Virus record (IMG/VR): IMGVR_UViG_3300017710_002137
Span: 17,209 to 81,208 of that record
Length of the DNA: 64,000 nucleotides
Source: a virus
Direction: 5' to 3' (one strand)
The notes under the pieces were generated by a model. The model saw only the letters and a program-made list of their open reading frames with translations. It was not told the origin of the DNA and searched no databases. The translations under genes were made by a program, and so were the position numbers. Positions 15,101 to 63,985 of the stretch are shown here, piece by piece (within the stretch, counting starts at the first letter, position 1; each line of letters starts with the position of its first letter).

Positions 15101-15328
15101 GCTCTAATCAATGTATGTAACCTACCAAGACCTAATTTCCTTGTGATAGATGAAGGATTCGGTACATTAGATAGTGAGAACCTACAATCCCTATTTATGT
15201 TGTTTACATACCTTAAAACTCAGTTTGATTTCGTTATGATTATTTCACACATTGATTCAATGAGAGATGTTGTAGATGGTCTTATAGAGATTAAGAAAGA
15301 AAAAGGATTTTCTAATGTAAAATTTTAA
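12170..15328 (+). CDS. Fused Mre11/SbcD nuclease + Rad50/SbcC ATPase (gp47-gp46 fusion)
   Basis: ADLH, AGDI, GNHD, FHG and GDIH metallophosphoesterase motifs; Walker A PNASGKSS; coiled coil with CDIC zinc hook; CSGME signature; Walker B FLVIDEGFGTLD; ISH. Confidence 0.92.
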   Translation: MIINKVYHLADLHIRNLQRHKEYKQVFKKFLKQVKEDKIEDSLIYIAGDIAHAKTEMSPELVHEISWFLTECAKLRETVLITGNHDCNLNNSHRLDVLTPIIENLGNNRIHYLRDTGVYNIHNLTFVVYSILDDKENWPKGDTIDGENKIVLFHGPVNKAQTDIGYTVSSNSFQVDMFDGFDMAMLGDIHKRQTFGPGYEHIAYAGSMIQQNHGELLENHGYLLWDIPTRTFTEHHLHNDYGFLTVDVVDGKIPQWVYDEVGTKLPKYPRLRLRFTRTEASDMKRRITELKKLFKVAEVTVTRTDTIGQLKTNQKVNKNIVGNVKDETFQNSLIRDYLERQYLLEDEELDKIAEINSELNGQIDDSDSIGNILWTPKEFQFSNMFSYGEDNKVRFNKAQGIVGIFAPNASGKSSLFDALSFCIYDKTSRTNISKNILNNRKTNFYCKFNFEIDGIDYYIERRAKYVRRQTSVKVDVDFWRDNNGVIESLNGEQRKDTNKEIEKYLGKFEDFVLTALSLQGNNALFIDKSQSERKEILSQFIGVNIFDKLYQKAADENRDNATLIRKFKSDDFTTKLAEIDTDLKTNKNDYKLLEINQKALKDEEDVLNKRIISLNEKIVKLNADSGVSIEELEKRLKNLETKKDGVSTTKSSVQERITFREELQITLEEILDKFDEEDLEEGITKLKRLRKNLSNIDSEIEKINIKLESLYERKQHLDSHKYNEDCDICMENSKSILDTKSEVESKIKELEESLQHNEKEKLDLNIEIDSLKGYEDEWDKYKDAKDKEDKLDREISQLINKLSTTETEEIRLDTQITQQQQLIKEYYKNEKQIQKNKEIRDEISGVREKLTIVKDELKGYNTDILKLNGKVSALQNQKETIEDRINEVKDMESQSRLFDFYLNALSKDGVSYELIEKALPMIEGEVNNILAQIVEFGMQLEIDGKNINAYLVYGDQRWSLEMCSGMERFISGLAIRVALINVCNLPRPNFLVIDEGFGTLDSENLQSLFMLFTYLKTQFDFVMIISHIDSMRDVVDGLIEIKKEKGFSNVKF

Positions 15329-43849: not shown

Positions 43850-44247
43850 GAAAATACCTACCTACACTTGGTGAATTAATTGATAGATTAACAATAGTTC
43901 AATTAAAAGAAGTCAAAATACCAAAACACAAAGAAGAATACCAAAAAGAGATTGAAGAAATCGTACACGATATTACAGAAATATTAACAACTGTAAAACA
44001 ACTGAAAGTAGATGGAGATTTTATCAGAGCAGTAATTGTACTATCTCAAATGAATACTCATATTTGGTACAATGAAGATAATGCTAGAAATGGTGAAGAT
44101 GTGGGAAATAACTTATTGTTAACACATGGATTGAATGGAATCAGAAATACTGCCAAAAATAAGATACAAGAATTAGATGGTGGTAGAAAAGATTATAAAG
44201 TAGATTGTATAGCATCAGATTTTAAAGATTGGGAAATTAGTTGGTAA
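43846..44247 (+). CDS. Hypothetical helical protein of polysaccharide clusters
   Basis: LGELIDRLTIVQLK...N-x-x-IW-x-x-ED...N-x-x-R...KNKI. Confidence 0.65.
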   Translation: MRKYLPTLGELIDRLTIVQLKEVKIPKHKEEYQKEIEEIVHDITEILTTVKQLKVDGDFIRAVIVLSQMNTHIWYNEDNARNGEDVGNNLLLTHGLNGIRNTAKNKIQELDGGRKDYKVDCIASDFKDWEISW

Positions 44248-49070: not shown

Positions 49071-49079
49071 ATATTTATA
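49071..49079 (+). promoter_or_regulatory. Putative late promoter ATATTTATA
   Basis: Recurrent motif 21 nt before ATG 49101, with SD-like AAGGTG between. Confidence 0.6.
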
Positions 49080-49100: not shown

Positions 49101-52100
49101 ATGAATGAACTTTCCAAATTTCTCGTAGAGAGTATAATGGAGGATGCGAATCCTATTAAAAAAACAGTAGTTATCTATGTGGGTAGGTTTCAACCTATGC
49201 ACAAAGGACACTATGGTACTTACCAACACCTTGTCAAAAAGTTCGGTAAGGATAATGTTTATGTTGGTACATCTGATAAGGTTGAAAAACCTAAATCACC
49301 TTTTAACTTCAAAGAGAAGGTGAAAATTATGACTACTATGTTTGGAATACCAAAATCCAAAATACATAAAGTCAGAAATCCATACAAACCCACAGAAATT
49401 CTTAAAAAGTTTGATGAGAAAACAACTGCATTCGTAACTGTTGTTGGTGAGAAAGATAAAAGTAGATTAAAGCCAGATAGTGGTAAATACTTTCAATCAT
49501 ACAAAGGAGAACCATCTGTGGGATATAGGGATGGTGGTTATGTTTATGTTGCACCTCAAAGTGGTGGTGGAATAAGTGGTACAGAAACTCGTAATGGTTT
49601 ATCGGTTGGTTCTGATGAACAGAAAAAGGATTTCTTTAAGAAACGAGCGTATGGAAAGTTCAACGCAACTATCTTTAAGATGATTACTGATAAACTCGAT
49701 GAGGGAATTGAAATTTCTAAAGAGATGATTGAGGAGTGGTTAATCAATGAGAGTTCTAAGATGGGAAGTGGTCAAGCAGATGATGGGCCAAACTTCTTTT
49801 TTCCCAATTACGATGTATTTTCCAAGATAAATGTAGATAGAGCAACACGAATTGGTTATGAGGTAGTTAATATGATTTCTAACAAAGAGTTAGAAGATAT
49901 TTACGACCATCCAATTTATCCCAATGGGCCTGTTGGAGCGGTAACACCTTTTCCTGCTGGTATCTTGGGTACAACAACTGCAAATAACCAAGTAGATATC
50001 TATTCAACTGATGCTTATTCTAAGTGGTTTAAGCATGTAACTCGTAGTGCATCAATGGTTGGTTATGAGTTAGTAAAAGGATTGGGAATCAATAAGGATG
50101 TAAAAGATGCATCGTTAGATTCTCAAAAAGGTGATAAGAAAGCACAACAAGAGTATGAAGCATCTTTAAATGAAAATATAGTACTACCAATTAAAGTTGG
50201 GGATACTATTATGACTGGTAGATTTAAAAACAAGAAAACAATTGTTAAATCAATCGGTAAAGATGAACATGGGATGCCTACTATTAATGGTAGAAAAGTA
50301 GTTAACTTCAGAATGGTTAAGGAAGGGTTTATATCAGAACTTGCAGGAACAGCTGTAAAGTGTAAAAAGTGTAATCACTCTTGGGAAATTGAATCTGAAG
50401 ATACCGAAAAGTACTTATGTCATTCATGTGGATGGGATTCTCAGAAACAAGAGTATGATTTTGATGCATTTGATTCTTGGAAAGAGAAAATGGGTTTGAA
50501 TGAAGAACTCGATGAACGAGGGAAAATGAGACCTTCTGATAAATTGAGAAGAAAAGCGGCAATGGCTGGTAAGAGAGCTCAAATAGCAAGAAGAAGAGCA
50601 AGAACGATGAAAAGAAGAAAACCTCTTGCTAAACTTAAGAAGATTGCTTACAAAATGGCATACAGACAAGTTTATGATGAGTTTGCAAAAGATTTATTTC
50701 CTGATATCAAAAAATCTGATTTAAGTATAAAACAATCACAAGTAGTTCACAAAAACGTAGTTAGAAAAAAAGGTAGAATAATGAAAAGAGCTAAGTTTAG
50801 ATTTCTACCAGCTCTTAGACAAAAAGAATTTGATAAGTTTCAAGGTAAAAACGAAAACATGATTGGGTATGCAGGACCTGAAGATATGAAACGTTTTGAT
50901 AAACAAAATAAGGAATATAGAAAAACAGCAGATTCCGATAAAGAGTATCAATACGAACCAATCAAAGAAGTAAATGAATTCTTTTACATGGATTTTAAAA
51001 AGTATGTTTATAAAAACAGAAAACAAATCAACCAAAAGATAAAAGGATTATCAGATAAAGAAAAAAAGAAGTTTTTAGAGTTACTTTGGAAAAAACAAAT
51101 TGGTAAAGGATTTGGTAAAGATGTAGATGGTAGTGAATTACACCAAATGTTAAAAAAAGACAAAGTAGTTAAAGAAGGATTAAAAGAATTAGGAATAAAA
51201 GATTTTAAATCGTTATTTAAGAAAATGCCTTCTGATTTACAAAAGAGAGTTTACAATCTAAAGAACTTTGGACAGAGAGTAGATAAACATCCTGAAGGAA
51301 ATGTTCTTAAACACACAATCACAGTTGTAAATCGTTCAATCAAAGAAGATGATATTGATATTGCAATTGCAGCAATGTTCCATGATATAGGAAAAGATGA
51401 AACTGCTGGTATCCATCCAAAGAAAGGACATATTACTCACTTCGGTCATGAGAAAGTATCTGCGAACTTGGTAAACAAATACAAAAAATGGATTCAATCA
51501 GTTGGTGGAGATGTGGATTCGGTTCATTATATCGTAAAAAATCATATGAGATACAAACAACTATCTGATATGAGACCAAAGAAACAGGCAGATTTAAAAT
51601 CACATCCTTTATTTAGTAAACTAAGTAAATTTTCTAAACACGATAGAGGTGGATTGGATGAATCTACTTTAAAATTAAGAGTTCCATCAGATATTCTAAA
51701 AATTCAAAAAGGATTTAAAAAGAATGGTAAGAAACTTTATGTAGTTGGTGGAGCTGTAAGGGATGCTATACTTGGAAAATCACCAAAGGACTTTGATTTG
51801 GCAACAGATGCAAAACCAGATGAGGTTTTAAAGATTGCCAAGGATTTAGGAATGAAAACTGTTGAGGTTGGTAAATCATTCGGAGTTGTAATGGTTGGTG
51901 GACATGAAATAGCAACATTTAGAAAAGATATTGGTAAAGGTAGGAGACCTTCATCTGTTGATTATACAGATATCGAGGGTGATGTACGAAGAAGAGATTT
52001 AACTATTAATGCTTTATTCTATGATATCGATAGAAAAGAGATAGTTGATTTAGTTGGTGGTATAAAAGATTTACAAAAGAAGAAAATCAGAACAGTTGGT

Positions 52101-54041
52101 AAGGCAGAAGAAAGATTTGATGAGGACCCGTTAAGAAAACTAAGAGCTTTAAGATTCCAAGCAAGGTTGGGTGGTAACTTAGATAAAGAATTACTTGATG
52201 CTTTACAAAAAGACCCATCACTTAAAGGAGTATCATTTGAAAGAGTTAGAGATGAGGTTATAAAATCAATCAAATCAGCTAAAGATACTAAAAAGTATAT
52301 GGAGTTGAATGATAAGATTGGATTCACTTCACTAATATTCCCAAATCTTAAAATATCTAAACCTTACATCAAGGATAATGATTATATCTTGTTCCTTGCA
52401 TCACTATTCAAAAAGAATTCACCTTCGGTATTAGGAAAACAATTAAACAAATTAACTTATTCTAATGACGAAAAAAATAATATTGTATTTTTAGTATCAT
52501 TACAACACTTTAGACCAGAAGAAATTGTAGTATTCAAGAAACTACAAGAAAAAACATCTTTATCAGATGACCAAATCCTTAAATTTGGTAAGTTGATTGG
52601 GAAGGATATGAAAAAGTTCGTAAACTTTAACTTATCTATTGGTGGAAAGGATGTTCCATCTGATATCAAAGGACCTGAAATAGGATTGTGGATTAAAAAT
52701 AAAGAAAAGGAAAAATTTATGAATGAAATAGAACAACTAATAAGTGATATTGATGATAAGTTGGTTGAAATGTTTTTACCAAACACTAAAACACCACAAC
52801 AACTAATAAAAGAAAACATAAACGAATCTAAATTACTCCAAGAAGGTGGTGCGTATGGACATATGTCTCACCCATTTGATACTGATATCAATTTAACCTT
52901 TGGACAACTTAAAGATATCGTAAATAGAGCACTTGAAGGTACACTTGAGTACACCAGAGAGAAAACCGATGGTCAAGCTCTTGCTATTTCATGGAGAGAT
53001 GGGAGATTAGTAGCAGCAAGAAACAAAGGACACTTAAAAAACAAAGGTGAGAACGCTTTAGATATCAAAGGTGTATCAGATAAGTTCCAAGGTAGAGGAG
53101 GTTTATCAGATGCATACAATTATGCTATGAAAGACCTTTCAAATGCAATAAAATCCCTTTCAGATAAACAAAGAGATAAGGTATTCAAACAAGGAGCGTG
53201 TTTTATGAACCTTGAAGTGATATATCCAACATCAGTTAATGTGATTCCTTATGGCCAAGCGTTACTTGTATTTCATGGAACTATGGAATATAACGATGAG
53301 GGTGTTGCTATAGGTGAAAATGGTGAAGCAGCAAGAATATTAGCTGGTATGATTAAACAAGTGAACAAAGATGTACAAGATAACTACACTATTCAAGGCC
53401 CACCTGTTGTAAAATTACCAAAATCACAAGATTTATCTAAAAAACGTAGTAAATATTCATCACAGATATCTAAATTACAGAAAGAATTTAGTTTAAAGGA
53501 TACTGATGGTGTTGCAAACTATCACCAAGCATGGTGGGAACAATGGGTTGATAAAAATTCACCATCAACACTCGATAACAAAACCAAAATGGGGTTAGTT
53601 AAGAGATGGGCATTCATGGATAAGAAGTTTAGATTAGATAAAAAGAATATTACTGATGAAAAAACATTAGAGTGGGCTAAGAAAACAGATAAAGATGACC
53701 AAAAAAAGATTTCTAAACAGAATCTAATGAAGTTTGAACAGATTTTCTTAGGATTAGGTGCAGAAGTATTAGAATTTACTTCATCTGCTTTAACTGTTAA
53801 TCCTGATTCCGCAGTTCGTGATATGAAAAAACGAATTGATAAAACAATCAAAGATGTTAAGAAATCAGGTGACCCAAAGAAGATAGAAAAACTTAAATTA
53901 GAACTTGGTAGATTAAATTCTATTGGTGGTTCTAATAAAATTGTACCAAATGAAGGTATTGTATTCTTATATAATGGTAATACTTTCAAACTCACAGGAA
54001 CATTTGCATCAGTAAATCAAATACTCGGTATTTTCTTCTAA
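49101..54041 (+). CDS. 1646-aa multidomain protein: HxGH nucleotidyltransferase, small modules (Zn ribbon, basic domain), HD phosphohydrolase, CCA-adding-type nucleotidyltransferase, ATP-dependent ligase-like domain
   Basis: GRFQPMHKGH...ISGT (aa 28-161); CKKC/CHSC (421-443); HPEG..H/HDIGK (730-765); GGAVRD/DFD/RRD/EDPLR (883-1012); EKTDG (1287-1291)...EGIVF (1618-1622)...K1630. Confidence 0.85.
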   Translation: MNELSKFLVESIMEDANPIKKTVVIYVGRFQPMHKGHYGTYQHLVKKFGKDNVYVGTSDKVEKPKSPFNFKEKVKIMTTMFGIPKSKIHKVRNPYKPTEILKKFDEKTTAFVTVVGEKDKSRLKPDSGKYFQSYKGEPSVGYRDGGYVYVAPQSGGGISGTETRNGLSVGSDEQKKDFFKKRAYGKFNATIFKMITDKLDEGIEISKEMIEEWLINESSKMGSGQADDGPNFFFPNYDVFSKINVDRATRIGYEVVNMISNKELEDIYDHPIYPNGPVGAVTPFPAGILGTTTANNQVDIYSTDAYSKWFKHVTRSASMVGYELVKGLGINKDVKDASLDSQKGDKKAQQEYEASLNENIVLPIKVGDTIMTGRFKNKKTIVKSIGKDEHGMPTINGRKVVNFRMVKEGFISELAGTAVKCKKCNHSWEIESEDTEKYLCHSCGWDSQKQEYDFDAFDSWKEKMGLNEELDERGKMRPSDKLRRKAAMAGKRAQIARRRARTMKRRKPLAKLKKIAYKMAYRQVYDEFAKDLFPDIKKSDLSIKQSQVVHKNVVRKKGRIMKRAKFRFLPALRQKEFDKFQGKNENMIGYAGPEDMKRFDKQNKEYRKTADSDKEYQYEPIKEVNEFFYMDFKKYVYKNRKQINQKIKGLSDKEKKKFLELLWKKQIGKGFGKDVDGSELHQMLKKDKVVKEGLKELGIKDFKSLFKKMPSDLQKRVYNLKNFGQRVDKHPEGNVLKHTITVVNRSIKEDDIDIAIAAMFHDIGKDETAGIHPKKGHITHFGHEKVSANLVNKYKKWIQSVGGDVDSVHYIVKNHMRYKQLSDMRPKKQADLKSHPLFSKLSKFSKHDRGGLDESTLKLRVPSDILKIQKGFKKNGKKLYVVGGAVRDAILGKSPKDFDLATDAKPDEVLKIAKDLGMKTVEVGKSFGVVMVGGHEIATFRKDIGKGRRPSSVDYTDIEGDVRRRDLTINALFYDIDRKEIVDLVGGIKDLQKKKIRTVGKAEERFDEDPLRKLRALRFQARLGGNLDKELLDALQKDPSLKGVSFERVRDEVIKSIKSAKDTKKYMELNDKIGFTSLIFPNLKISKPYIKDNDYILFLASLFKKNSPSVLGKQLNKLTYSNDEKNNIVFLVSLQHFRPEEIVVFKKLQEKTSLSDDQILKFGKLIGKDMKKFVNFNLSIGGKDVPSDIKGPEIGLWIKNKEKEKFMNEIEQLISDIDDKLVEMFLPNTKTPQQLIKENINESKLLQEGGAYGHMSHPFDTDINLTFGQLKDIVNRALEGTLEYTREKTDGQALAISWRDGRLVAARNKGHLKNKGENALDIKGVSDKFQGRGGLSDAYNYAMKDLSNAIKSLSDKQRDKVFKQGACFMNLEVIYPTSVNVIPYGQALLVFHGTMEYNDEGVAIGENGEAARILAGMIKQVNKDVQDNYTIQGPPVVKLPKSQDLSKKRSKYSSQISKLQKEFSLKDTDGVANYHQAWWEQWVDKNSPSTLDNKTKMGLVKRWAFMDKKFRLDKKNITDEKTLEWAKKTDKDDQKKISKQNLMKFEQIFLGLGAEVLEFTSSALTVNPDSAVRDMKKRIDKTIKDVKKSGDPKKIEKLKLELGRLNSIGGSNKIVPNEGIVFLYNGNTFKLTGTFASVNQILGIFF

Positions 54042-54064
54042 AATTTCGGTTTCTCTATTTTTAT

Positions 54065-54073
54065 ATATTTATA
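54065..54073 (+). promoter_or_regulatory. Putative late promoter ATATTTATA
   Basis: Recurrent motif 26 nt before ATG 54100. Confidence 0.55.
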
Positions 54074-54099
54074 TACACAACATAACCTAATGTATAATA

Positions 54100-54756
54100 A
54101 TGGGAAAAGAATTTAAAAAGAAATATATGCATCCAACTCGTAGAAAGTTGGTAGATATGGTTCAGACAGGAAAGTATGATAAAAATACAACTGTTGGTTG
54201 GACTAAAAAGAAAGAATCTCATAAAGTAGGTGATGTTTGGGAAGATGAACATAGTAAATATGAACAAAAAGAAGGCTATGTTTTAAAAACGGGTAAAAAT
54301 TCTGAAGCATTACAAGAAATCAGAAAATATCTCGAAGAAAAATCAAAATGTAAAAACTCTGAGTGTAAAACTATTAAAAAATCTGCAAAAGATTTGAAGT
54401 TTATACAAAATGGTGGGTTTTGCATGAATTGTACATCAATAAGAGAAACCGAATTAAGAGCGGTTGGATTATTTCAAGAATATCAAGATTATAAGATATT
54501 TACTCGTATGATTGTGTTTGGTAAAACAAAATTAGAAGAATTAAAACAATCACTAAAAGATATCAAACCATTTTATGAATATGTAAATGAAGATGGAACG
54601 GTTGAAAAGTGGGAATTACCAAATTCGATTGAAGATACAAAAAAAGATATTCAAGAAATGATAGATAATGGGACAAAAGAAATCGAAGAGTTAGAAAACA
54701 AAAGAATTAAGGCCTTCGATATATTAAAGGAAAAAAATTATGAGCATTTTATTTAG
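54100..54756 (+). CDS. Hypothetical protein with Cys motifs
   Basis: 218 aa; KVGDVWED, C-x4-C...CMNC, C-terminal coiled coil; two genes upstream of the terminase. Confidence 0.7.
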   Translation: MGKEFKKKYMHPTRRKLVDMVQTGKYDKNTTVGWTKKKESHKVGDVWEDEHSKYEQKEGYVLKTGKNSEALQEIRKYLEEKSKCKNSECKTIKKSAKDLKFIQNGGFCMNCTSIRETELRAVGLFQEYQDYKIFTRMIVFGKTKLEELKQSLKDIKPFYEYVNEDGTVEKWELPNSIEDTKKDIQEMIDNGTKEIEELENKRIKAFDILKEKNYEHFI

Positions 54757-55429
54757 TTTACTATCAAAAAGGTGGAAAGAATTATTTATCCTACTATTAA
54801 TAGGAGTTATCTTTTTAATGAGAGGATGTGGAACGGATTTCGAAGATAAAGAAATCATTAATGTAGATGGTAAAGATTTTGAATTAATAAAAAAAGAAAT
54901 AGATACTGTATTTGTAGAAAAAGAAGTTAAAGTAACAAAGTATGTACCAAAGTACATTACAAAAGAAGTAATTAAAGAAGTTGAAATACCAATAGATGTA
55001 GATTCACTTGCAATTATTAAAGATTATTTTTCTAAAATAACAGTAAAAGATACATTGAACTTAACTTATGAGTTCCCAACAGAAGTAACTGATTCATTAG
55101 GAGCAAAACCAGATAGTAGTTTAGGATTTGGTATTCTTACTGATGTTATTTCACAAAATAGAATCGAATCAAGAGAAATTGATTGGTTCTTCAAGATTCC
55201 AACTGTTTACAATACTACCATTGTAAAAGAGTTACCTAAAAACGAATTTTATTATGGTTTCGGATTAGGAGTTGACCAAACAAATGGGTTTGGTAACTTA
55301 AGTGTTAATGGATTGTTAAAAACTAAGAAGATGAATATCTATGGATTGAATGTAGGTTTATCTAATCAAGGTGGAGAATACAAACCATTCGTTGGAACAT
55401 CTCTCTATTGGAAAATAGGAAAAAAATAA
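54740..55429 (+). CDS. Membrane-anchored protein with C-terminal amphipathic beta strands (spanin candidate)
   Basis: N-terminal hydrophobic LFILLLIGVIFLMRGC; DT-rich extended middle; terminal strands FYYGFGLG, LSVNGLLK, IYGLNVG, FVGTSLYWKI. Confidence 0.55.
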   Translation: MSILFSLLSKRWKELFILLLIGVIFLMRGCGTDFEDKEIINVDGKDFELIKKEIDTVFVEKEVKVTKYVPKYITKEVIKEVEIPIDVDSLAIIKDYFSKITVKDTLNLTYEFPTEVTDSLGAKPDSSLGFGILTDVISQNRIESREIDWFFKIPTVYNTTIVKELPKNEFYYGFGLGVDQTNGFGNLSVNGLLKTKKMNIYGLNVGLSNQGGEYKPFVGTSLYWKIGKK

Positions 55430-55432
55430 AAA

Positions 55433-57025
55433 ATGGCTAAACAGAGTTTAAAGGAAATAATTAAACTTGAGTATCAAAAATGTGCACAAGACCCAATCTA
55501 CTTTATGAAAAAGTATTGTATGATTCAGCATCCTGTGCGAGGTAAGATTCCTTTTCACTTATATCAGTTTCAAGAAAGAACTTTAGACCAATTCGCAGAA
55601 CATCGTTATAACATTATCCTTAAATCTCGACAAACAGGTATCTCAACCTTAACTGCGGGATTTTCACTTTGGAAAATGTTATTCAATCAAGATTTTAATG
55701 TATTAGTAATTGCAACTAAACAAGAAGTTGCCAAGAACCTTGTAACGAAGGTTCGTGTAATGAATCAGTACTTACCATCATGGTTAAAACAAACAACAGT
55801 AGAAGATAACAAACTATCCTTAAGATACTCGAATGGTTCTCAGATAAAAGCAACTTCAGCCGCTGGTGATGCTGGTCGTTCTGAAGCATTATCCTTATTG
55901 GTATTTGATGAAGCTGCATTTATTGATAAGATTGAAGATATTTGGATATCAGCACAATCTACCTTATCAACGGGTGGTAATGCAATTATTCTTTCTACAC
56001 CAAATGGTGTCGGAAATTTCTTTCATAAAACTTGGGTAGGTGCTGAAGAAGAAGAAAACGGATTCAATCCAATCAGATTACATTGGAGTGTTCATCCTGA
56101 AAGAAATCAAGATTGGAGAGATGAACAAGAAGTACTATTAGGAGTAAAGGGAGCCGCACAAGAATGTGATTGTGATTTCGTTTCTTCTGGTGATACTGTG
56201 ATTGACCCTCAACTTCTTATGTTCTATAAAGAATCCTTTTGTCAAGAACCAATAGAGAAAACAGGATTCGATGGAAACCTTTGGAAGTGGGAATATCCCA
56301 ACTATAATAAAACATATATGGTAGTTGCGGATGTTGCTCGTGGAGATTCAACTGATTATTCAGCATGTCATGTTATAGATGTTGAAGAAGCTTCACAAGT
56401 TGCAGAATACAGAGGTAAATTGGATACTAAAGATTTTGGAAACTTTTTAGTTTCATTGGCAACTGATTACAATCAAGCACTATTAGTAATTGAAAACGCA
56501 AATATTGGTTGGGCAGTTATACAACAAGTAATTGATAGAGGATATGGAAATCTTTTCTACATGAGTAAAGATTTAAAGTATGTAGATGTTGAACATCAAC
56601 TATCAAATAGATACCGTGCCGAGGAACGAGGGATGGTTGCAGGATTTTCGACAACTTCTAAAACTCGACCTTTGATTATATCAAAGTTGGATGATTATTT
56701 TAGAGATAAATCTGTAACAGTTCGTTCAACACGATTAATTGATGAATTGTTTACATTTATATGGAGAGGAAATAGAGCCGAAGCCATGAGTGGATACAAT
56801 GATGATTTAACAATGGCATTCGCAATCGGATTGTGGGTTAGAGATACTGCACTTAGATTAAGACAAGAAGGAATTGATTTAACAAAACAAGCATTAGGTG
56901 GTATTGGAGCACATTCATTGGATGTAGTTGGTATGGGATTTGGTGGTAACTCTTCAATGGAAGATAATCCTTGGAAACAAAGGGTTGGTGATAGAGATGA
57001 GGATTTAACTTGGTTAATTAAATAA
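55433..57025 (+). CDS. terL: Terminase large subunit (T4 gp17-like)
   Basis: LYQFQ, KSRQTGIST (Walker A-like), LLVFDEAAF (Walker B), STPNG, nuclease DVARG...DYS, E-N, DDL. Confidence 0.95.
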   Translation: MAKQSLKEIIKLEYQKCAQDPIYFMKKYCMIQHPVRGKIPFHLYQFQERTLDQFAEHRYNIILKSRQTGISTLTAGFSLWKMLFNQDFNVLVIATKQEVAKNLVTKVRVMNQYLPSWLKQTTVEDNKLSLRYSNGSQIKATSAAGDAGRSEALSLLVFDEAAFIDKIEDIWISAQSTLSTGGNAIILSTPNGVGNFFHKTWVGAEEEENGFNPIRLHWSVHPERNQDWRDEQEVLLGVKGAAQECDCDFVSSGDTVIDPQLLMFYKESFCQEPIEKTGFDGNLWKWEYPNYNKTYMVVADVARGDSTDYSACHVIDVEEASQVAEYRGKLDTKDFGNFLVSLATDYNQALLVIENANIGWAVIQQVIDRGYGNLFYMSKDLKYVDVEHQLSNRYRAEERGMVAGFSTTSKTRPLIISKLDDYFRDKSVTVRSTRLIDELFTFIWRGNRAEAMSGYNDDLTMAFAIGLWVRDTALRLRQEGIDLTKQALGGIGAHSLDVVGMGFGGNSSMEDNPWKQRVGDRDEDLTWLIK

Positions 57026-57029
57026 ATCT

Positions 57030-57038
57030 ATATTTATA
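57030..57038 (+). promoter_or_regulatory. Putative late promoter ATATTTATA, followed by AAGGAG
   Basis: Recurrent motif 19 nt before ATG 57058. Confidence 0.6.
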
Positions 57039-57057
57039 TAGTAAGGAGAAAAATATT

Positions 57058-57444
57058 ATGATTTCAATGAAAAAATTAATTAGTGAAAACGAAAACGAAT
57101 CTTATTGTAATGAGTATTTCGTAGAAAATTACAATGATATTAAAGAATTCTGTGAATTCATGGAATCGTATAAATCTGATATTAACGAAGCAGAATACCA
57201 AGGAAGAAAAGTAAAACTTGGTAAACCAATGCAAGGTGATGTTAAAAAATTCAAAGTATATGTTAAAAATCCTCAAGGTAATGTAGTAAAAGTAAACTTT
57301 GGTCACAAAGGTAAGGGAAATGAAAAGACGATGAAAATTCGTAAGAACAATCCAGATGCAAGAAAAGCATTTAGAGCAAGACACAATTGTGATTCACCAG
57401 GTCCAAGACATAAAGCTAGATACTGGTCATGTAGAAAGTGGTAA
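57058..57444 (+). CDS. Probable internal head protein: acidic leader plus basic domain (DUF6321-like)
   Basis: Starts MISMKKLISE; after INE comes AEYQGRKVKL...VNFG...FRARHNC...ARYWSC. Confidence 0.65.
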   Translation: MISMKKLISENENESYCNEYFVENYNDIKEFCEFMESYKSDINEAEYQGRKVKLGKPMQGDVKKFKVYVKNPQGNVVKVNFGHKGKGNEKTMKIRKNNPDARKAFRARHNCDSPGPRHKARYWSCRKW

Positions 57445-57483
57445 AATAAAATTAAAAGGTTATAAAATTAAATTAGGAACAAG

Positions 57484-59211
57484 ATGGCAGATACTTCATT
57501 TTTTGGTAGATTAACGAAACTCTTCAGAGCTCAAGCAGTTGTTACTGTCGATAAAGATGGTAAGAGAAAAGTTGTTGATACCGATGAAAGACAACAAACA
57601 AATTTATCTTCTCTAAGAGATAGATATACGAAACTACAAAAAAGTTTCTTTGAACAAGCAGGTGGTGCTCAATCAATGGCATACCAACAAGTTCGTAGAG
57701 AAGTTTTTAGAGATTACGATGCGATGGATAACGACCCAATATTAGCATCAGCTCTCGATATATACGCAGATGAATCAACACTAAAGAACGAATTTGGTGA
57801 TACTCTTATGATTCACTCAGATAATCAAAAAGTACAAGATTTATTAAACAACTTATTCTATGATATTCTTAATGTTGAATTCAACTTATGGCCATGGGTA
57901 AGAAATATGTGTAAGTATGGGGATTTCTTCTTAGGTTTAGAAATTGCTGAAGGTAAAGGTATTGTTAACGTAACACCTCATTCAGTTTACAACACAGAAA
58001 GATTAGAAAGAACAGACCCTTCAAATCCAAATTCAGTAAAATTTAAAATTACTGAGGACCCGAATGGAAAAGAACAATATGAAAACTTTGAAGTTGCTCA
58101 TTTTAGATTATTAGCAGATACTAACTGGTTACCATATGGTAAATCTATGATTGAGAATGGTAGAAGATTGTGGAAACAATTATCTTTAATGGAAGATGCT
58201 ATGTTAATCCATAGAATTATGAGAGCACCTGAAAAAAGAGTTTTCAAAATTGATATCGGTAATATCCCACCAACAGAAGTAGATAACTATATGCAAAGAA
58301 TTATGAACAAAATGAAGAAAGTTCCTTTTGTTGATAGAAATACTGGTGATTACAACTTAAAGTACAATATGCAAAACCTAACAGAAGATTTCTATCTTCC
58401 TGTTCGTGGTGGTGATAGTGGAACATCTATTGATAATCTTGCAGGATTAGAGTATGCAACCATCGATGATATTGATTACCTAAAAAATAAATTATTCGCA
58501 GCATTAAAGATTCCAAGAGCTTATTTAGGATATGAGGAAAATGTAAATGGTAAAGCAACTCTTGCCGCTGAAGATGTAAGATTTGCAAGAACAATAGAAA
58601 GAATCCAAAGAACAGTAATTTCAGAATTATCTAAGATTGCAATTGTTCACTTATACTCACAAGGAATTACTGATTCAGAAATGACTAACTTTGAATTAGG
58701 ATTAGTAAATCCATCTACAATTTACGAACAAGAAAAAGTAAACTTGTGGAGTGAAAAAATTAGATTGGCTCAAGATATTCAAGGTCTTAATATGTTATCC
58801 AAAGATTGGGTATATGAAAACATCTTTAAACTAAGTGGTGGTGAACAAGATGAACAGAGAGTTAGGATGTTGGATGACTTAAAAGATAGATTTAGATTCC
58901 GTTCTATTGAAGATGAAGGTTCAGACCCTGCACAAGAAGATGAAGAACCAGATGATATAGAAGAACAAATTGAAAATATCAAAAAAGAAATTAAAGATAA
59001 AGGTGGTAGACCAAGAGAGGGTGGAACTTATAAAAAAGATAAACATCCACTTGGTAGAGACCCACTCGGTGATGATGAAAGAACGAAAAAACGTTCAAGA
59101 ACTTCTGAAGATAAGGCAATTAAATATATTAATGGTATAGCGGCTAAAAGGAAGTATTTACACGAAATGAAAGGTATGTTAGATGAAAATAATATACTTG
59201 ACCAAGAATAA
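57484..59211 (+). CDS. Portal protein (T4 gp20-like)
   Basis: QLSLMEDAMLIHRIMRAPEKRVFKIDIGN, EDFYLPVRG, DIDYLKNKLFAALKIP, EDVRFARTI. Confidence 0.95.
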   Translation: MADTSFFGRLTKLFRAQAVVTVDKDGKRKVVDTDERQQTNLSSLRDRYTKLQKSFFEQAGGAQSMAYQQVRREVFRDYDAMDNDPILASALDIYADESTLKNEFGDTLMIHSDNQKVQDLLNNLFYDILNVEFNLWPWVRNMCKYGDFFLGLEIAEGKGIVNVTPHSVYNTERLERTDPSNPNSVKFKITEDPNGKEQYENFEVAHFRLLADTNWLPYGKSMIENGRRLWKQLSLMEDAMLIHRIMRAPEKRVFKIDIGNIPPTEVDNYMQRIMNKMKKVPFVDRNTGDYNLKYNMQNLTEDFYLPVRGGDSGTSIDNLAGLEYATIDDIDYLKNKLFAALKIPRAYLGYEENVNGKATLAAEDVRFARTIERIQRTVISELSKIAIVHLYSQGITDSEMTNFELGLVNPSTIYEQEKVNLWSEKIRLAQDIQGLNMLSKDWVYENIFKLSGGEQDEQRVRMLDDLKDRFRFRSIEDEGSDPAQEDEEPDDIEEQIENIKKEIKDKGGRPREGGTYKKDKHPLGRDPLGDDERTKKRSRTSEDKAIKYINGIAAKRKYLHEMKGMLDENNILDQE

Positions 59212-59234
59212 TTTAGTTTAACTTTTATAATTTT

Positions 59235-59243
59235 ATATTTATA
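59235..59243 (+). promoter_or_regulatory. Putative late promoter ATATTTATA
   Basis: Recurrent motif in the gap after the portal gene. Confidence 0.55.
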
Positions 59244-59283
59244 TTAGGGAATTTTTACTATATCATAATAGGAAACAAATAAG

Positions 59284-60156
59284 ATGAGAAAAATAAAACA
59301 TTCAAAATTTAAGAATACTGGATTCCTTTTTGAGCTTTTAACTCGACAAATTACCGTTGAAATACTTAATGGTAGCGAGGAAAAGTCAAAAGGAATCATC
59401 AAAGAATTCTATGGAAGAGGAACTGAGCTATCAAAAGAACTCAGATTATTCAACCTACTTATAAACGAAAAATACAATACAGATTCAAAGGCTGAAAAGT
59501 TTATTGATGCTATTTTAGAAGCACATACTAAAATAAATTATACAAAACTTCAACGAGAAAAGTACAATCTTGTTAAATCCATCAAGGAGAACTTCGAAAT
59601 TAATAATTTCTTATCTTCCCCGGTAACAAACTACAAAATTTTAGCTTCAATTCATAAACTTTTTGAAGGTAAAAAGAATGATATTCTTGATGTTAAGGAC
59701 GTATTCGATTCTAAAATCACTCTTGTAGAACACATCTCATCTAATTCCCAAAATTCAAAAGGTGTTACGCAAGATAAATTAGTAGAGGAATATAGAAAAC
59801 AAGAGAAGGACCTAAGGTTGTTGACATATAAAATACTTGTTGAAACTTTTAACAAAAAATATACTACTCTAAATGAATCACAGAAGGGTTTATTAAGAGA
59901 ATATATTAATAACGTAACTAATACATCAAAGTTTAACGAGTATTATGATTCTCAATTAGTCGAAACTATTACTACTTTACATGGTATGTACAAGAGTATG
60001 AAGGATAAGATTACAAAAATCAAGTTGAGAGAAACAATTAATGTTCTTAAAAAACAAAAAATTGGTAAAAAGATTACCGATGAACAAGTTTCAGCTTTGA
60101 TGATGTCTTATGAATTGATTAAGGAGATAAAAAATGTCAATGAACGAAAATCTTAA
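59284..60156 (+). CDS. Hypothetical head-module protein
   Basis: 290-aa helical protein (KHSKFKNTGFLFELL...FNKKY) between portal and prohead protease. Confidence 0.7.
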   Translation: MRKIKHSKFKNTGFLFELLTRQITVEILNGSEEKSKGIIKEFYGRGTELSKELRLFNLLINEKYNTDSKAEKFIDAILEAHTKINYTKLQREKYNLVKSIKENFEINNFLSSPVTNYKILASIHKLFEGKKNDILDVKDVFDSKITLVEHISSNSQNSKGVTQDKLVEEYRKQEKDLRLLTYKILVETFNKKYTTLNESQKGLLREYINNVTNTSKFNEYYDSQLVETITTLHGMYKSMKDKITKIKLRETINVLKKQKIGKKITDEQVSALMMSYELIKEIKNVNERKS

Positions 60157-61426
60157 AGAGTATTTAGATGAATTAATTCAAGAAATTGAAAAAGAACTTG
60201 AAGAGGCTACTACAACAGGTAACGTAGCTGGTTACCAAACCCCTAAAGCATTTTCTGATAAAGGTAAATCTGATAAAAAAAGAAAGAAAAAAATCGCAAC
60301 TGCACTTGGTTATAGTGTAGTGGGTGATGATGTTGATAACATCTCTGAGGCAATCAAAGGTAGAAACAACAAAACAGGTGAATCCTTTGGAATGGTTATC
60401 GGTTCTGATAAACAAGGTAACAATGGATACGAACTTACCGTAAGAAAAACTTACAATTCAAGAATAAGTGCATATGGATTTATTTTTGATAAAGATTCCA
60501 ACCTAACTGATATTCGTGATTATGGATATTCACTCGATGGTAAGTTTCCTGATATGAAAGGTCATGCAAGTTCAACATCAGTAAGACCTAACAAAAGAGA
60601 AACTATTACTCAAATAGCTAAAATTACTTCCCCAGCATTTGCAAAAAAGATTTATCAGCACGTTCAAAAGAATAACAAAATGGATGAATCAGTAAACGAA
60701 GCTTCTAAATTAGCTATGGGTATTGCTGGATTCACTGGTACTCGTGGTGTTGCTGTTGATGATTTTATCAATACACATAACATCGATGCAAAAAAACTTT
60801 TTAACTTTGTAAAAAAAGGAAATTTAAAAGATAGAATGGCATTCGTATCAGCAATTGCTGGTAGACCTAATAACAAAATGTTTAAAATGATTACCAAACA
60901 ATTTGGTGAATCAGTAAACGAAGCAATGAAACCATCACAAGTTCGTTCAGCAATCTCAAAGGTTAAAAAACAACTAATGAGAAAGTGGAAACAAAAAGGT
61001 GGATATGAAAACTTCGGTCAAAAAGAATTAGATAAAATGAAATCTAAGTTTGATTACAATCCTTATGGTTCACCAGATGAAAGACAAATTTCTAAGATGT
61101 TAGATGGGTTTGATAATTGGGCAATGAACTATGATGGTAATATGAGGGAAGATATATCTGAAGCCAAAGTAAAAAGACCCGTTAATCGTTGGTTAGAATT
61201 AAAAAACGATGAAACAATGCATCCTCATAAGAAGATGGCAATGGGTTTAAAAGAATTAAAGTATCAGTTAAGAGAAACTGAAAAGTTCTTTAATTGGTAT
61301 AATAAAATAAAAACTATGAATGAGTTAGATTCCAATCAGTATTGGAAAAGAACAAATAAACATATTTATAGTATAAAAGAGAAACTAATTAATATCGCTA
61401 AAACGATACAGGAGATTGAAAAATGA
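60134..61426 (+). CDS. Modular probable internal head/prohead-core protein
   Basis: SD AAGGAG at 60121. Acidic leader, then modules separated by LEE-A, ISE-A, ESVNE-A (twice) and ISE-A. Confidence 0.7.
   Translation: MSMNENLKEYLDELIQEIEKELEEATTTGNVAGYQTPKAFSDKGKSDKKRKKKIATALGYSVVGDDVDNISEAIKGRNNKTGESFGMVIGSDKQGNNGYELTVRKTYNSRISAYGFIFDKDSNLTDIRDYGYSLDGKFPDMKGHASSTSVRPNKRETITQIAKITSPAFAKKIYQHVQKNNKMDESVNEASKLAMGIAGFTGTRGVAVDDFINTHNIDAKKLFNFVKKGNLKDRMAFVSAIAGRPNNKMFKMITKQFGESVNEAMKPSQVRSAISKVKKQLMRKWKQKGGYENFGQKELDKMKSKFDYNPYGSPDERQISKMLDGFDNWAMNYDGNMREDISEAKVKRPVNRWLELKNDETMHPHKKMAMGLKELKYQLRETEKFFNWYNKIKTMNELDSNQYWKRTNKHIYSIKEKLINIAKTIQEIEK
60685..60924 (+). repeat. Exact 18-bp direct repeat TGAATCAGTAAACGAAGC (encodes ESVNEA) flanking an in-frame module
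   Basis: Copies at 60685-60702 and 60907-60924, 222 bp (74 codons) apart. Confidence 0.9.
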
Positions 61427-61896
61427 AAATAACAAGAGAACACTTAAAAAATATTGTAAGAGAAACCTTACAAGAAGAATCTGAATATCAAGAATTTTTC
61501 AAGAAGGCTTTAGAAAAGGCTGGTAAGTCAATTCCTGCAATGTCTGATGAAGAAAAAAAGAAATTCTTTAACAACATAGAAAAAACTTGGAGTGGTAGAG
61601 GAAAAAAGAATGAAAGATTTGGTAGAGGAGATGAAACTGAATTAGATGAGTTAACAAAGGCTCAAGAAAAATTACCACCAGCACTTAAAAAGGCAATAGA
61701 GAAAAAAGAAGGTAAAAAAGAATCAGTTGATGAATCAATCAACGAAGGACCTTCTACTGAAGAAAAAAGAATTGCAATGTTGGCTGTTAGAAAACAAGCT
61801 AAATACAGAAATGTAAGTTTGGAACAGGCAATACAAGACCAAATCAATGCTCTTGAAGAATTAAAGAGAGATGCAAAGAGAGGTAAATTAAAATAA
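61423..61896 (+). CDS. Probable internal head protein (modular)
   Basis: Leader MKITREHLKNIVRETLQEE; internal LDE and ESVDESINE linkers; SD AGGAG. Confidence 0.7.
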   Translation: MKITREHLKNIVRETLQEESEYQEFFKKALEKAGKSIPAMSDEEKKKFFNNIEKTWSGRGKKNERFGRGDETELDELTKAQEKLPPALKKAIEKKEGKKESVDESINEGPSTEEKRIAMLAVRKQAKYRNVSLEQAIQDQINALEELKRDAKRGKLK

Positions 61897-61897
61897 A

Positions 61898-62074
61898 ATG
61901 ACTAAGAGAGAGTTGTATGATATAATCAATGAGGAAATTGTTAACTTTAAAAAAGGAAAGATTAACGAAGAACTCAATGAATCTGATAAGGATTTAATAA
62001 GAAAAATCATCAGACAGGAAGTATCTGCAATCTTTTTCGATTTATTTAAACGAAGAAAAACTTGGGGAGCATAA
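61898..62074 (+). CDS. Small hypothetical head-module protein (58 aa), not in the ORF track
   Basis: Translated by hand: MTKRELYDIINEEIVNFKKGKINEELNESDKDLIRKIIRQEVSAIFFDLFKRRKTWGA. Its TAA overlaps the protease ATG (TAATG). Confidence 0.75.
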   Translation: MTKRELYDIINEEIVNFKKGKINEELNESDKDLIRKIIRQEVSAIFFDLFKRRKTWGA

Positions 62075-62667
62075 TGGGACAATTATTAATAGAAACAAAC
62101 CTATTCGAAGGTAAAGTAAATGAAGATGATAGTGGAAGAACTATTGTTAAGGGTATTTTACAAAGAGCAGGTGCTGAAAATCAAAATGGAAGGATATATC
62201 CTAAAGAAATTTTGATGAGAGAAGCTAAAAAATACGAAACACTTATTAAAGAAAGAAGAGCACTTGGTGAATTAGACCATCCAGATTCTTCTGTAATCAA
62301 TCTAAAGAACGTATCTCATAACGTAAGAGAGATACATTGGGATAATGATGATTTAGTAGGAACAGTTGAGATTCTACCAACTCCAAGTGGTAATATCTTA
62401 AAAGAACTACTTAAAGCAGGTATCCTTTTAGGTATATCATCAAGAGGTATGGGTTCAGTAGAACCTCTATCAGGTGGTAAAGTACAAGTAGGTGAAGATT
62501 TTGAATTGATTGGTTGGGATTTTGTTTCTAATCCATCAACTCATGGAGCATTTATGACTCCAATGAACGAATCTGTTAATAAAGAACTTATTAAACAAGG
62601 TGAAGTTTGTAACGAGTGGTGTAAATCACAAGATTTGATGAGAGAAATTATAACAGAAATAGGTTAA
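62074..62667 (+). CDS. Prohead core protease (T4 gp21-like)
   Basis: NQNGRIYP, ALGELDHP, NVSH, TPSG, GISSRGMGS, WDFVSNPSTHGA. Probable start ATG 62074. Confidence 0.95.
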   Translation: MGQLLIETNLFEGKVNEDDSGRTIVKGILQRAGAENQNGRIYPKEILMREAKKYETLIKERRALGELDHPDSSVINLKNVSHNVREIHWDNDDLVGTVEILPTPSGNILKELLKAGILLGISSRGMGSVEPLSGGKVQVGEDFELIGWDFVSNPSTHGAFMTPMNESVNKELIKQGEVCNEWCKSQDLMREIITEIG

Positions 62668-62671
62668 GACC

Positions 62672-62860
62672 ATGGGATTTAATGTACAGGACTTTATGTC
62701 CAAAAATAAATTTAAGTTAGGTAAAGTTACCAGAGAAGTAGGAGAAACTCCATTCAAAGGTGGGCATAACGATATAAGAAAAACAAACTATGAAGTTAAG
62801 TTAACTGAAGATGGTAAACTTGATTTATATACACATAAAACGGAGACAAAAGAATTATGA
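62672..62860 (+). CDS. Small hypothetical protein (62 aa)
   Basis: In the operon; stop overlaps the next start (ATGA). Confidence 0.6.
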   Translation: MGFNVQDFMSKNKFKLGKVTREVGETPFKGGHNDIRKTNYEVKLTEDGKLDLYTHKTETKEL

Positions 62861-63735
62861 TTAAATTGACTGAACTTTTAAAAGAAGAAGAAACCTTCAC
62901 AGCAATCAATAAAGATAGTGGTGAAGTTTCTGTATTTAAATCCAAAGATGCAAGAGATTCAGCTGTAAAGGCAGGTACTCACACTAAAGCTAAAGATTCG
63001 GAAAATGGTGATGATAAAAAAGATACTCCTAAAGTGAACATCTTTGATAAACCTAAAAAGGATGAACCTAAGAAAGATGAACCTGTAAGGGATGACCAAA
63101 CCGATGCACAGATAGAAGATGTTCAAAATAATATTGATGATATGCCCGGTGATGAAATACAAGATTATGCAGAATCAGATATATTCCCATATCTTAAAGG
63201 AAAAGATTTGGAACTTGCAAAAATGTATGTAGATGATATTGATGCGGCAGGGGATGATTTTGATAGAAGTGCTGATTTAAGAAAAGATTTAAAAGATTTA
63301 TTTGATAAGAAAATGAGTTTAGAGAACACCTCTACAAGATTAAAAGATTTATTACCAGAAGGATTAATCAACGAAGGAACTCGTTCTCAAGTTGGTATCA
63401 TTGATAGAAGTGGTAAGATTGCATCAGCGTATGTTCACTACGATGGATATCCATCTAATATGAAACCAGGTCTTAAAAAACACATGAAGAACGAAAAAGA
63501 TGTTCTTACTTTAATTAAAAAGGGTGGAGCAAGTGGAATCTTTGATGATAAAGAAATTGAATATTATAATGAAAAATCACAACCATTAAAAGGAACTGAA
63601 AAAGATATACAAGGATATATTAAAAATGCTGGAAACAAAGGTGGTGCAGAATTTGTATATTTATATAATATGAAAGATAGAAAATGGTATTTCGCCGATG
63701 TTTATAAAGATAAAGATTTAAAAAAATTATTTTAA
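62857..63735 (+). CDS. Probable internal head polyprotein with C-terminal Y-x-H-Y-DGYP domain
   Basis: Starts MIKLTELLKE; internal TRLKDLLPE-GLINE; then GTRSQVG...YVHYDGYPS...EFVYLY...W. Confidence 0.7.
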   Translation: MIKLTELLKEEETFTAINKDSGEVSVFKSKDARDSAVKAGTHTKAKDSENGDDKKDTPKVNIFDKPKKDEPKKDEPVRDDQTDAQIEDVQNNIDDMPGDEIQDYAESDIFPYLKGKDLELAKMYVDDIDAAGDDFDRSADLRKDLKDLFDKKMSLENTSTRLKDLLPEGLINEGTRSQVGIIDRSGKIASAYVHYDGYPSNMKPGLKKHMKNEKDVLTLIKKGGASGIFDDKEIEYYNEKSQPLKGTEKDIQGYIKNAGNKGGAEFVYLYNMKDRKWYFADVYKDKDLKKLF

Positions 63736-63745
63736 GGAGAGTACA

Positions 63746-63985
63746 ATGATTAAATTAACAGATATATTGAACGAAGGAAGAATGGGTAAAGACGAAATCA
63801 ATCAAGAATTGATTAATGTTAAAAATCCAAAAGAACTTGATATGCTTTTTAGAAATATGGAAAATGCAGGTGAAGAAAAACTTTTCGCTAGATTATATCA
63901 TAACTCAACAAATCCGAAATTACAAAAGGCATTTTTTGATGCTATAAAAAAAGAATTAAAAAGATATCCAGAAGGACTTGTATAA
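63746..63985 (+). CDS. Probable internal head protein (79 aa)
   Basis: Starts MIKLTDILNE; SD AAGGAGAGTA, which recurs at 63991-64000 before the next (off-window) gene. Confidence 0.7.
   Translation: MIKLTDILNEGRMGKDEINQELINVKNPKELDMLFRNMENAGEEKLFARLYHNSTNPKLQKAFFDAIKKELKRYPEGLV

Follow-up and report, generated by a model that had tools for sequence, protein, structure and literature searches.

The DNA analysed here, referred to as the window, is a stretch of 64,000 nucleotides (positions 17,209 to 81,208) that forms the last 64 kb of the 81,208-bp virus contig IMGVR_UViG_3300017710_002137. The contig has about 30% G+C and its + strand holds nearly all genes. Pfam and PHROGs matches reveal a head module of the T4 type in the window, with terminase, portal and S77 protease, and several genes in and ahead of this module start with a short peptide, here called a leader, that ends in glutamate. 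A preliminary description of these genes proposed that the leaders are capsid-targeting sequences (CTS) such as those of the internal proteins of T4. The genes and leaders concerned are as follows.

49101..54041, + strand: multi-enzyme chain of 1646 amino acids (aa), 187.6 kDa (Pfam, PHROGs)
49101..49130, + strand: leader MNELSKFLVE of the 1646-aa protein, with a second site-like stretch, SIME, at residues 11-14
55433..57025, + strand: large terminase, T4 type (PF03237, 5.1e-13; phrog_2, 1.5e-46)
57058..57444, + strand: 128-aa protein with leader MISMKKLISE (57058-57087), from open reading frame (ORF), joint and isoelectric point (pI)
57484..59211, + strand: portal protein, gp20 family (PF07230, 8.2e-71; phrog_213, 1.1e-63)
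60134..61426, + strand: 430-aa protein of the head module whose N-terminus resembles a leader (LKE at residue 9, ELIQE at 17)
61423..61896, + strand: 157-aa protein with leader MKITREHLKNIVRE (61423-61464), between portal and protease
61898..62074, + strand: 58-aa protein with leader MTKRELYDIINE (61898-61933), between portal and protease
62074..62667, + strand: prohead protease, gp21/Peptidase_S77 family, 197 aa, ATG at 62074 (PF03420, 1.2e-26; phrog_207, 5.4e-49)
62857..63735, + strand: 292-aa protein with leader MIKLTELLKE (62857-62886), from ORF, joint and pI
63746..63985, + strand: 79-aa protein with leader MIKLTDILNE (63746-63775), in a cassette-exchange slot; mature part with pI 9.0

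All six N-termini singled out in the preliminary description are present at these starts, four of them as exact ten-residue matches to M-x-x-[LM]-x-x-[FLI]-[LI]-x-E (49101, 57058, 62857 and 63746) and two as longer leaders of 14 (61423) and 12 residues (61898). A Shine-Dalgarno-like sequence lies upstream of every one of them. Each leader ends in Glu with Leu, Ile or Val at P3; in the four 10-mers Leu or Met occupies position 4 and Leu, Ile or Phe position 7, and L4 is invariant in the ortholog alignments of two leader proteins, 49101 and 62857. The claim that the sequences behind the leaders are unrelated holds at the BLASTP level: among the six proteins without their leaders, compared in a six-sequence database, the best match has E = 0.004 (61423 against residues 621-685 of 49101) and all remaining matches have E > 0.04.

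The proteins behind the leaders tend to have acidic spacers and basic mature parts (pI 9.0-10.7). The 57058 protein consists of an acidic spacer (residues 1-45, pI 4.2) and a basic domain (residues 46-128, pI 10.7), with an internal site I42-N43-E44 followed by A45 (57181-57189) and a phrog_7595 match that spans residues 42-128. The 62857 protein has an acidic N-terminal part (pI 4.5) and a basic C-terminal domain (pI 9.3), with the joint L170-I-N-E173 followed by G174 (63364-63375), the residue at which its phrog_1987 match begins. Similar joints occur in 61423 (I106-N-E108, then G109) and twice as ESVNEA in 60134 (V187-N-E189 and V261-N-E263, each followed by A). A separate feature of the 60134 family, shared with its counterparts in two cultured relatives, Flavobacterium phage vB_FspM_immuto and Microcystis phage Mel-JY01, is the short motif T-G-x-V-x-G-Y-x-T-P/K-x-A-F after the leader-like helix (window 60134-60260; L001:14735-14956; L002:15043-15579).

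The prohead protease scores 93.9 bits against PF03420, for which the cut-off is 27, and its start at ATG 62074 is backed by 20 orthologues. Its N-terminus reads MGQLLIE and IITE is found near the C-terminus (residues 192-195). Across the 20 orthologues L4, I6, E7, I192, I193, T194 and E195 are invariant, as are H69, S122 and S123; His69 and Ser122/123 are the residues we take to be catalytic. T4 gp21 (N-terminus MNEPQLLIE, NC_000866) shares QLLIE in its own N-terminal site with the window protease, and the LIE-9 site and C-terminal processing of gp21 discussed in PMC9026906 are comparable to MGQLLIE and IITE. The contig stops ahead of the scaffold and capsid genes, and in relatives the same gene order continues, with a gp23-family capsid protein downstream (PF07068, 1.1e-77). 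The scaffold candidate of the relatives (L008:19280-20464) matches no Pfam or PHROG family and is named from its position only.

The principle of a CTS combined with gp21 processing has been known since the 1990s. In T4 (NC_000866) the leaders are MKTYQEFIAE in IPII/IPIII, MELITELFDE in Alt and MAKINELLRE in gp24, the last of which has 6 of its 10 residues in common with the 62857 leader. According to PMC9026906, the propeptides of T4 internal proteins have 10-19 residues, the first 10 residues of IPIII are enough for incorporation, residues 4 and 7 of the IPIII CTS mainly govern targeting and residues 8 and 10 processing, and T4-related internal proteins are described as basic. The conserved positions of the window leaders, 4, 7, 8 and 10, are these IPIII determinant positions. 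With the T4 CTS of IPI, IPII, IPIII and Alt the leaders share a short N-terminal peptide that ends in Glu with Leu or Ile two residues earlier, hydrophobic residues at 4 and 7, placement on unrelated and often basic proteins, and a gp21-family protease encoded in the gp20/gp21/gp23 head module. The T4-type reading put forward earlier is supported by the head module with its Peptidase_S77 protease and by a leader layout like that of IPII/IPIII, Alt and gp24. We consider it probable, at about 0.7, that the short N-terminal peptides are T4-type capsid-targeting propeptides on exchangeable cargo.

Chance could also yield such N-termini, without function, where a genome is A/T-rich and abounds in K, I, L, N and E. 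The pattern M-x-x-[LM]-x-x-[FLI]-[LI]-x-E occurs in 4 of the 79 contig ORFs, where 0.016 would be expected by composition and 0.032 by how often this spaced pattern turns up internally, a significance that is overstated since the pattern was picked post hoc. A strict pattern derived from T4 (Glu at 10, hydrophobic residues at 7 and 8) matches 5 of 79 ORFs where 0.61 are expected (binomial P = 4e-4); the fifth match, MVMKVLVIGE at 44241, is probably a false positive, as by eye it resembles the first strand of a Rossmann-type fold. The strict matches concentrate in the head module, with 3 of 10 ORFs against 2 of 69 others (Fisher P = 0.013). A loose pattern (two hydrophobics, any residue, Glu, with the Glu at 8-15) is found in 9 of 79 ORFs against 3.6-4 expected (P ~0.01-0.02). 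This enrichment is just 2-3 fold, and the loose pattern matches 27 of the 282 T4 ORFs, many of them non-head, both of which speak for chance. Against it stand the excess of strict matches and three observations in relatives: sharp peaks in the position of the site, the conservation of leaders in orthologues whose neighbouring residues have diverged, and a reversed control pattern that gives 0 matches against 4 in the forward direction in three relatives' records. The chance explanation is already disfavoured by the pattern counts, and we regard it as extremely improbable.

The relatives that were compared comprise 80 IMG/VR loci among at least 598 portal relatives, together with Mel-JY01 and immuto, the closest cultured phages (portal identity about 50%); with the contig they supply 946 + strand ORFs. 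These loci share descent, so counts across them are not independent. A start of the form M-[ILVM]-[KRSQNT]-[LMI]-x-x-hydrophobic-hydrophobic-x-E is found in 58 of the 946 ORFs and another 22 are MIKL-like, with the consensus M-I-[KSR]-L-x-x-[LI]-L-[NK]-E; beside it there is a longer variant, MIKLGG...L-K-x-hydrophobic-x-E. Among 716 non-redundant N-termini of relatives the site is most frequent at residues 7, 10 and 17, the last coinciding with Glu17 of the 60134 protein, and past residue 24 the count drops to 0-5 per position, except for 14 at residue 34. Stripped of their first 12 residues, 84 leader proteins sorted into 14 groups by single-linkage clustering of BLAST matches. If four groups of junk short ORFs that lack the Glu are discounted, at least 10 unrelated groups of proteins stand behind one kind of leader. 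Within single families the leader is retained as well. The orthologues of 57058 keep MI[SKR][LM]xx..xE while the spacer has diverged, those of 61423 retain hydrophobic-hydrophobic-x-Glu at residue 14 or 18, and all 22 distinct orthologue N-termini listed for 61898 show hydrophobic-hydrophobic-x-Glu-Glu by eye.

At the 63746 slot the window, L008 and L031/L006 have 60 identical upstream bases and the same leader DNA but three different coding sequences behind them, which supports the leader end as a breakpoint for the exchange of gene cassettes between related phages; the window's own 63746 protein had no homologue within the 80 related loci. The complete 266-kb relative G001 carries three further canonical MIKL-leader genes remote from the head module (L083, L085 and L086, at 37517, 140085 and 142100 of G001:C1, with 104, 266 and 135 aa); the 266-aa gene L085, the only one of the three submitted to Pfam, matched no family. 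The description of the leader as a portable tag is thus sustained by at least ten unrelated groups and by the cassette breakpoint. Sequence pattern, non-random placement, portability and protease family are all observed directly. In immuto (L001, 1236-8972 and 9011-10311) many genes upstream of the terminase start with short helices that end in hydrophobic-hydrophobic-x-Glu, including an annotated 5'-nucleotidase and an 841-aa protein (MKKSQLRQIIKE, MKKLIRIVE, MRLLELLRE, MENFDLKKFLVE), and the leader habit therefore reaches this cultured genus.

Such shared gene starts could instead be an element that acts in DNA, either for translation initiation or as a recombination cassette, with a peptide that has no role in targeting. 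Identical ribosome-binding site (RBS) and leader DNA ahead of different genes would be expected in that case, and among 56 distinct leader DNAs codon 10 is GAA in 56 of 56 and the codons are A/T-rich. Position 8 is always L, I or M in this set, which demonstrates only a preference among hydrophobics since the set was chosen by an expression that demands Glu10 and a hydrophobic residue 8. However, codons vary synonymously (ATT/ATA; TTA/CTT/CTA/TTG; AGA/CGA/CGT) while residue classes hold, which reads as selection acting on the peptide, and the amino-acid pattern is kept across the clade through synonymous and conservative changes alike. Leaders as different as MNELSKFLVE, MKRFKTFLVE and MSFKSIYESIIVE share the spacing of hydrophobic residues and Glu, the same peptide occurs inside a coding sequence at a domain joint in L053, and T4 leaders of proven function have the same layout. 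A purely DNA-level role is therefore highly improbable.

Besides standing at gene starts, candidate protease sites mark the borders of modules. The head module and 49101, with 3,918 residues in all, contain 11 copies of the motif [ILVM]NE[GSA], and the 22,814 residues outside them contain 4 (Fisher P = 5e-7, a statistic devised post hoc). PHROG matches open at such joints in 57058 (phrog_7595, from residue 42) and in 62857 (phrog_1987, from residue 174). What is an internal module in the window can be a gene with its own leader elsewhere, as seen for the C-terminal domain of 62857, the C-terminal part of 61423 and the last, ligase-like domain of 49101. The 62857 C-domain is a gene of its own directly after a leader in L004, L006, L020, L032, L039 and L040 (in L006 MIKLTELLKEGVINE is followed by GTRSQ), and the part of 61423 after residue 103 is a separate gene in L039, where the leader MIKLKDILNEEPINE precedes GPSTEEKR.

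Cleavable N-termini need not mean delivery. In T4 the core or scaffold proteins gp22 (MLKEQLIAE), gp67 and gp68 have similar N-terminal sites (NC_000866), are cleaved into short fragments and are not injected (PMC5694885), so the earlier wording that the leaders define the injected proteome over-reaches. The leaders could accordingly be propeptides of prohead core or scaffold parts only, with all tagged proteins degraded and expelled and no injected proteome. The 61423, 61898 and 60134 proteins, which lie between portal and protease, are highly charged and have repeated joint motifs, would suit such a role. The positions of 61423 and 61898 match those of T4 genes 67 and 68, as both are small, lie between portal and protease and have N-terminal protease-type sites; in Pfam and PHROGs they hit only unnamed or sub-threshold families (no direct gp67/gp68 comparison was included), and the same databases identified no gp24, gp67 or gp68 homologue in the window. 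Because of this position 61423 and 61898 are possibly core components, and by analogy all three proteins may be of the core/scaffold type and degraded rather than delivered. For the tagged set as a whole, this explanation is unlikely. In several tagged proteins the C-terminal part is a folded, basic domain known elsewhere as a free-standing phage protein (phrog_7595, phrog_1987), others contain NMNAT-like, HD, CCA-adding and ligase-like enzymes without an obvious scaffold role, and the cargo slot differs between close relatives, unlike an essential scaffold.

The most demanding case is the chain at 49101. Its size, given before as roughly 190 kDa, is confirmed at 187.6 kDa, and two further features bear on its reading.

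52803..52844, + strand: domain joint LIKE-NINE-SKLLQE, residues 1235-1248, candidate protease sites directly before GGAYGHM
49072..49079, + strand: core TATTTATA of a promoter-like motif (ATATTTATATA), 29 nt before the 49101 start

The chain comprises a cytidylyltransferase/NMNAT-like domain (residues 25-116), a zinc ribbon with a basic stretch, an HD domain (745-822), a CCA-adding/poly(A) polymerase head (879-997) and a ligase-like domain (1249-1646); its orthologues in relatives range from 639 to 1980 aa. The leader lies outside the first Pfam domain, as PF01467 begins at residue 25, and a helix predicted with modest confidence at residues 3-14 is separate from and ahead of a strand at 21-27. 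In 17 aligned orthologues M1, L4 and L8 are invariant and Glu10 is present in 15. A wider search with the first 230 residues retrieved 111 database homologues, of which 91 have a complete N-terminus (126-403 aa), and in 88 of these 91 a hydrophobic-hydrophobic-x-Glu site lies 6-22 residues into the protein, before the first strand begins.

Towards the other end of the chain, the GG of the ligase-like domain is immediately preceded by hydrophobic-hydrophobic-x-Glu in 30 of 31 distinct orthologue rows. In L027 and L030 this domain is a separate gene that begins with MIRLGKLLNEVLLKE followed by GGAYGHM, and the L053 chain holds the whole of MIRLKELLNEILLTE internally, at the domain joint. The domain itself has K40-T-D42-G43, E370-G371-x-V373-F374 and K382 invariant in 16 orthologues, which we take to be motif I (KxDG) and motifs IV and V of covalent nucleotidyltransferases and RNA ligases. 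The name 'ligase-like' for residues 1249-1646 is a label given from motifs only: no Pfam family matched even at E up to 1, a PDB profile search gave only weak eS6 rows, and the top Foldseek rows include RNA/tRNA ligases at E >= 0.39, with none at E <= 0.001. VIA-align reached Z 5.2 (6rce_I over 104 residues) and Z 5.0 (9qw7_B over 92), scores that unrelated helical rows match, in a list dominated by helical hairpins.

For this protein a different explanation deserves attention, namely that the N-terminal helix is a structural part of a phage NMNAT-like family and that the chain is a late enzyme of the cytoplasm which is not packaged. A helix on nearly all homologues is what a family feature would look like, and 187.6 kDa exceeds the T4 cargo named in passages of PMC9026906. 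The 'NadR' gene of immuto was considered as a leader-bearing orthologue of 49101 and rejected, and its lack of a leader also fits an unpackaged enzyme. Yet the helix pattern is conserved in the family and the sequence is not, as leaders vary widely across the homologues of the N-domain. Two homologues have the canonical leader of unrelated head proteins (MIKLKNILNE in P0062 and MIRLKNILNE in P0056), and at least one homologue, P0108, has no leader and begins directly at the first strand. A tblastn search of cultured phages with the N-domain found distant NMNAT genes only, and those of jumbo phages mostly align only from query residues ~19-25 (36 of the 40 listed rows of 51 records). As a stand-alone gene the last domain has a MIRL leader of its own, and 49101 shares a promoter-like motif with head genes. 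An unpackaged enzyme with a structural helix is possible but doubtful, and the 1646-aa chain likely belongs to the leader-tagged set. The earlier proposal of a tag on a protein of this size has thus gained support as far as the leader is concerned, from the 17 orthologues and 88 of 91 homologues, whereas packaging is what we infer from it.

The motif ahead of 49101 recurs at 54066, 57031 and 59236, ahead of 54100, 57058 and 59284. In the contig, 12 of 21 + strand sites of TATTTATA fall within the 1,428 intergenic bases, 23-129 nt before starts, with 11 of the 12 at 23-48 nt and one at 129 nt. The longer form ATATTTATATA is also present at window positions 4154, 6223, 7387, 16175 and 24427. PHROGs has no family for the motif-preceded genes 471, 4196, 4886, 6249, 7417 and 16206, and a label of these genes as structural failed on this account. 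The motif therefore shows regulation that is shared with the head genes but not 'late' timing. The window shows no enrichment of TATAAATA, the late-promoter word of T4 (20 matches against 16 expected), and only its complement on the + strand stands out in intergenic DNA.

The comparison with T4 also sets limits to the use of the leaders as a detector. The strict pattern matches 7 of the 282 T4 ORFs, four of which are known gp21-processed head proteins; it is thus not fully specific but a fair, if imperfect, predictor in T4, the only phage for which the true set is known. The leader profile of the clade had a similarly mixed outcome, as it ranks gp24 first among the 282 T4 ORFs but places Alt 23rd and IPII/IPIII outside the top 25, and as a general detector of T4 CTS it was rejected. 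Among the strict matches in T4, gp61.1, a hypothetical protein of 54 residues (T4 record 18966-19130), starts with MKTFKEFIKE, nearly the leader of IPI/IPII with Glu at 10. To our knowledge, it is not a known head protein.

Differences from the T4 CTS are found in the sequence and in the scale. The clade consensus M-I-[KSR]-L-x-x-[LI]-L-[NK]-E is not that of T4 (MKTYQEFIAE), the clade set is larger, with its leaders known from sequence alone, many cargo genes lie within the head module between protease and scaffold, and the cargo includes multi-module chains with internal joints, of 1646 aa here and 1980 aa in a relative. T4 gp24, gp21, gp22, gp67 and gp68, which carry comparable sites, are shell or core components and not delivered cargo. 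In the giant phages phiKZ, 201phi2-1 and SPN3US, head and ejection propeptides are cut at A/S-x-E by a related protease (PMC5694885). There, too, cleavage follows the Glu of a three-residue motif, N-terminal propeptides are thought to target proteins to the prohead, and paralogues have conserved N-termini with a diverged remainder; those propeptides are mostly longer than 100 residues with Ala or Ser at P3, whereas the clade leaders are of T4 length with Leu, Ile or Val at P3. The internal-protein loci of T-even phages are polymorphic, with different basic proteins behind CTS-like sequences (PMC9026906, its reference 69). Variable cargo behind a conserved leader is also seen at the 63746 slot, where the exchange point is seen directly in the DNA and the slot is inside the head module. 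Among the titles and abstract starts retrieved from the literature, none dealt with this clade.

Several points weigh against the interpretation of the leaders as capsid-targeting propeptides, in addition to the post hoc statistics and the shared descent mentioned above. Ten residues are too short to prove homology with the T4 leaders, the strict pattern in T4 also matches gp49, gp61.1 and one spurious ORF, and the low ranks of Alt, IPII and IPIII count here as well. In two subclades of the 57058 family the N-terminus is not of the MIKL kind (MENYSKELYNE... and MEDITKALYSN..., for instance). An N-terminal Glu is missing from the protease of immuto (MNNPLLIN) and from that of Mel-JY01 (MSKQLLID). 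The constant GAA at codon 10 and the identical RBS-plus-leader DNA ahead of different genes also fit selection on DNA, and what precedes GGAYGHM may be a structural element conserved in that domain and not a place of cleavage. A virion proteome of immuto or Mel-JY01 was not found in the literature, for immuto within abstract starts.

In view of the above, the following mechanism can be considered. The leader would form an amphipathic helix of some 10-14 residues, hydrophobic at positions 4, 7 and 8 and ending in Glu, which would dock its protein on the core of the assembling prohead. The phage's gp21-family serine protease could then cleave after the leader Glu, and the same protease may cleave similar joints between modules, often [I/V/L]-N-E followed by G, A or S. 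Basic mature pieces would be freed and retained in the head with the DNA. The 1646-aa chain would be loaded once via its own leader and then cut at its joints, and cargo genes would be exchanged between related phages at the leader end. Docking, cutting and retention in the head, as well as injection, are steps suggested by the likeness to T4.

Three other genes, one of the relatives and two of the window, may be mentioned. A homologue of ribosomal protein S21 (PF01165, 1.9e-12), without leader, lies inside the head module of relatives (L008:18795-19100), between the cargo genes and the scaffold candidate; it is also found in L031, L021 and L047 and in the Mel-JY01 annotation in L002. Directly before the terminase, a 229-aa protein (54740-55429) has a hydrophobic N-terminal stretch that ends in Cys (MSILFSLLSKRWKELFILLLIGVIFLMRGC) and looks like a membrane or lipoprotein signal. 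At window positions 12170-15328 an SbcC-like protein of 1052 aa is encoded, a phage gp46-type nuclease subunit (phrog_77, 8.4e-58).

If the leaders work as in T4, they would provide a sequence-only readout of the packaged proteome in a large group of uncultured aquatic phages, and this proteome would be modular and rapidly exchanged. More tentatively, a large and widespread clade with T4-type heads might load plug-in cargo into its capsids, including a chain of about 190 kDa, made up of NAD-related and RNA-repair-type enzymes, that is cut at its joints in the prohead and then injected. Enzymes delivered in this way would be active before phage gene expression and could, for instance, counter tRNA-cutting or NAD+-depleting defences of the host. 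Since two cultured relatives exist, immuto and Mel-JY01, the idea is directly testable. What it amounts to is an established principle of T4 on a new and larger scale, and a packaged enzyme chain cut by the protease, if true, would extend the small internal proteins and Alt of T4 to pre-made machinery for metabolism and RNA repair.

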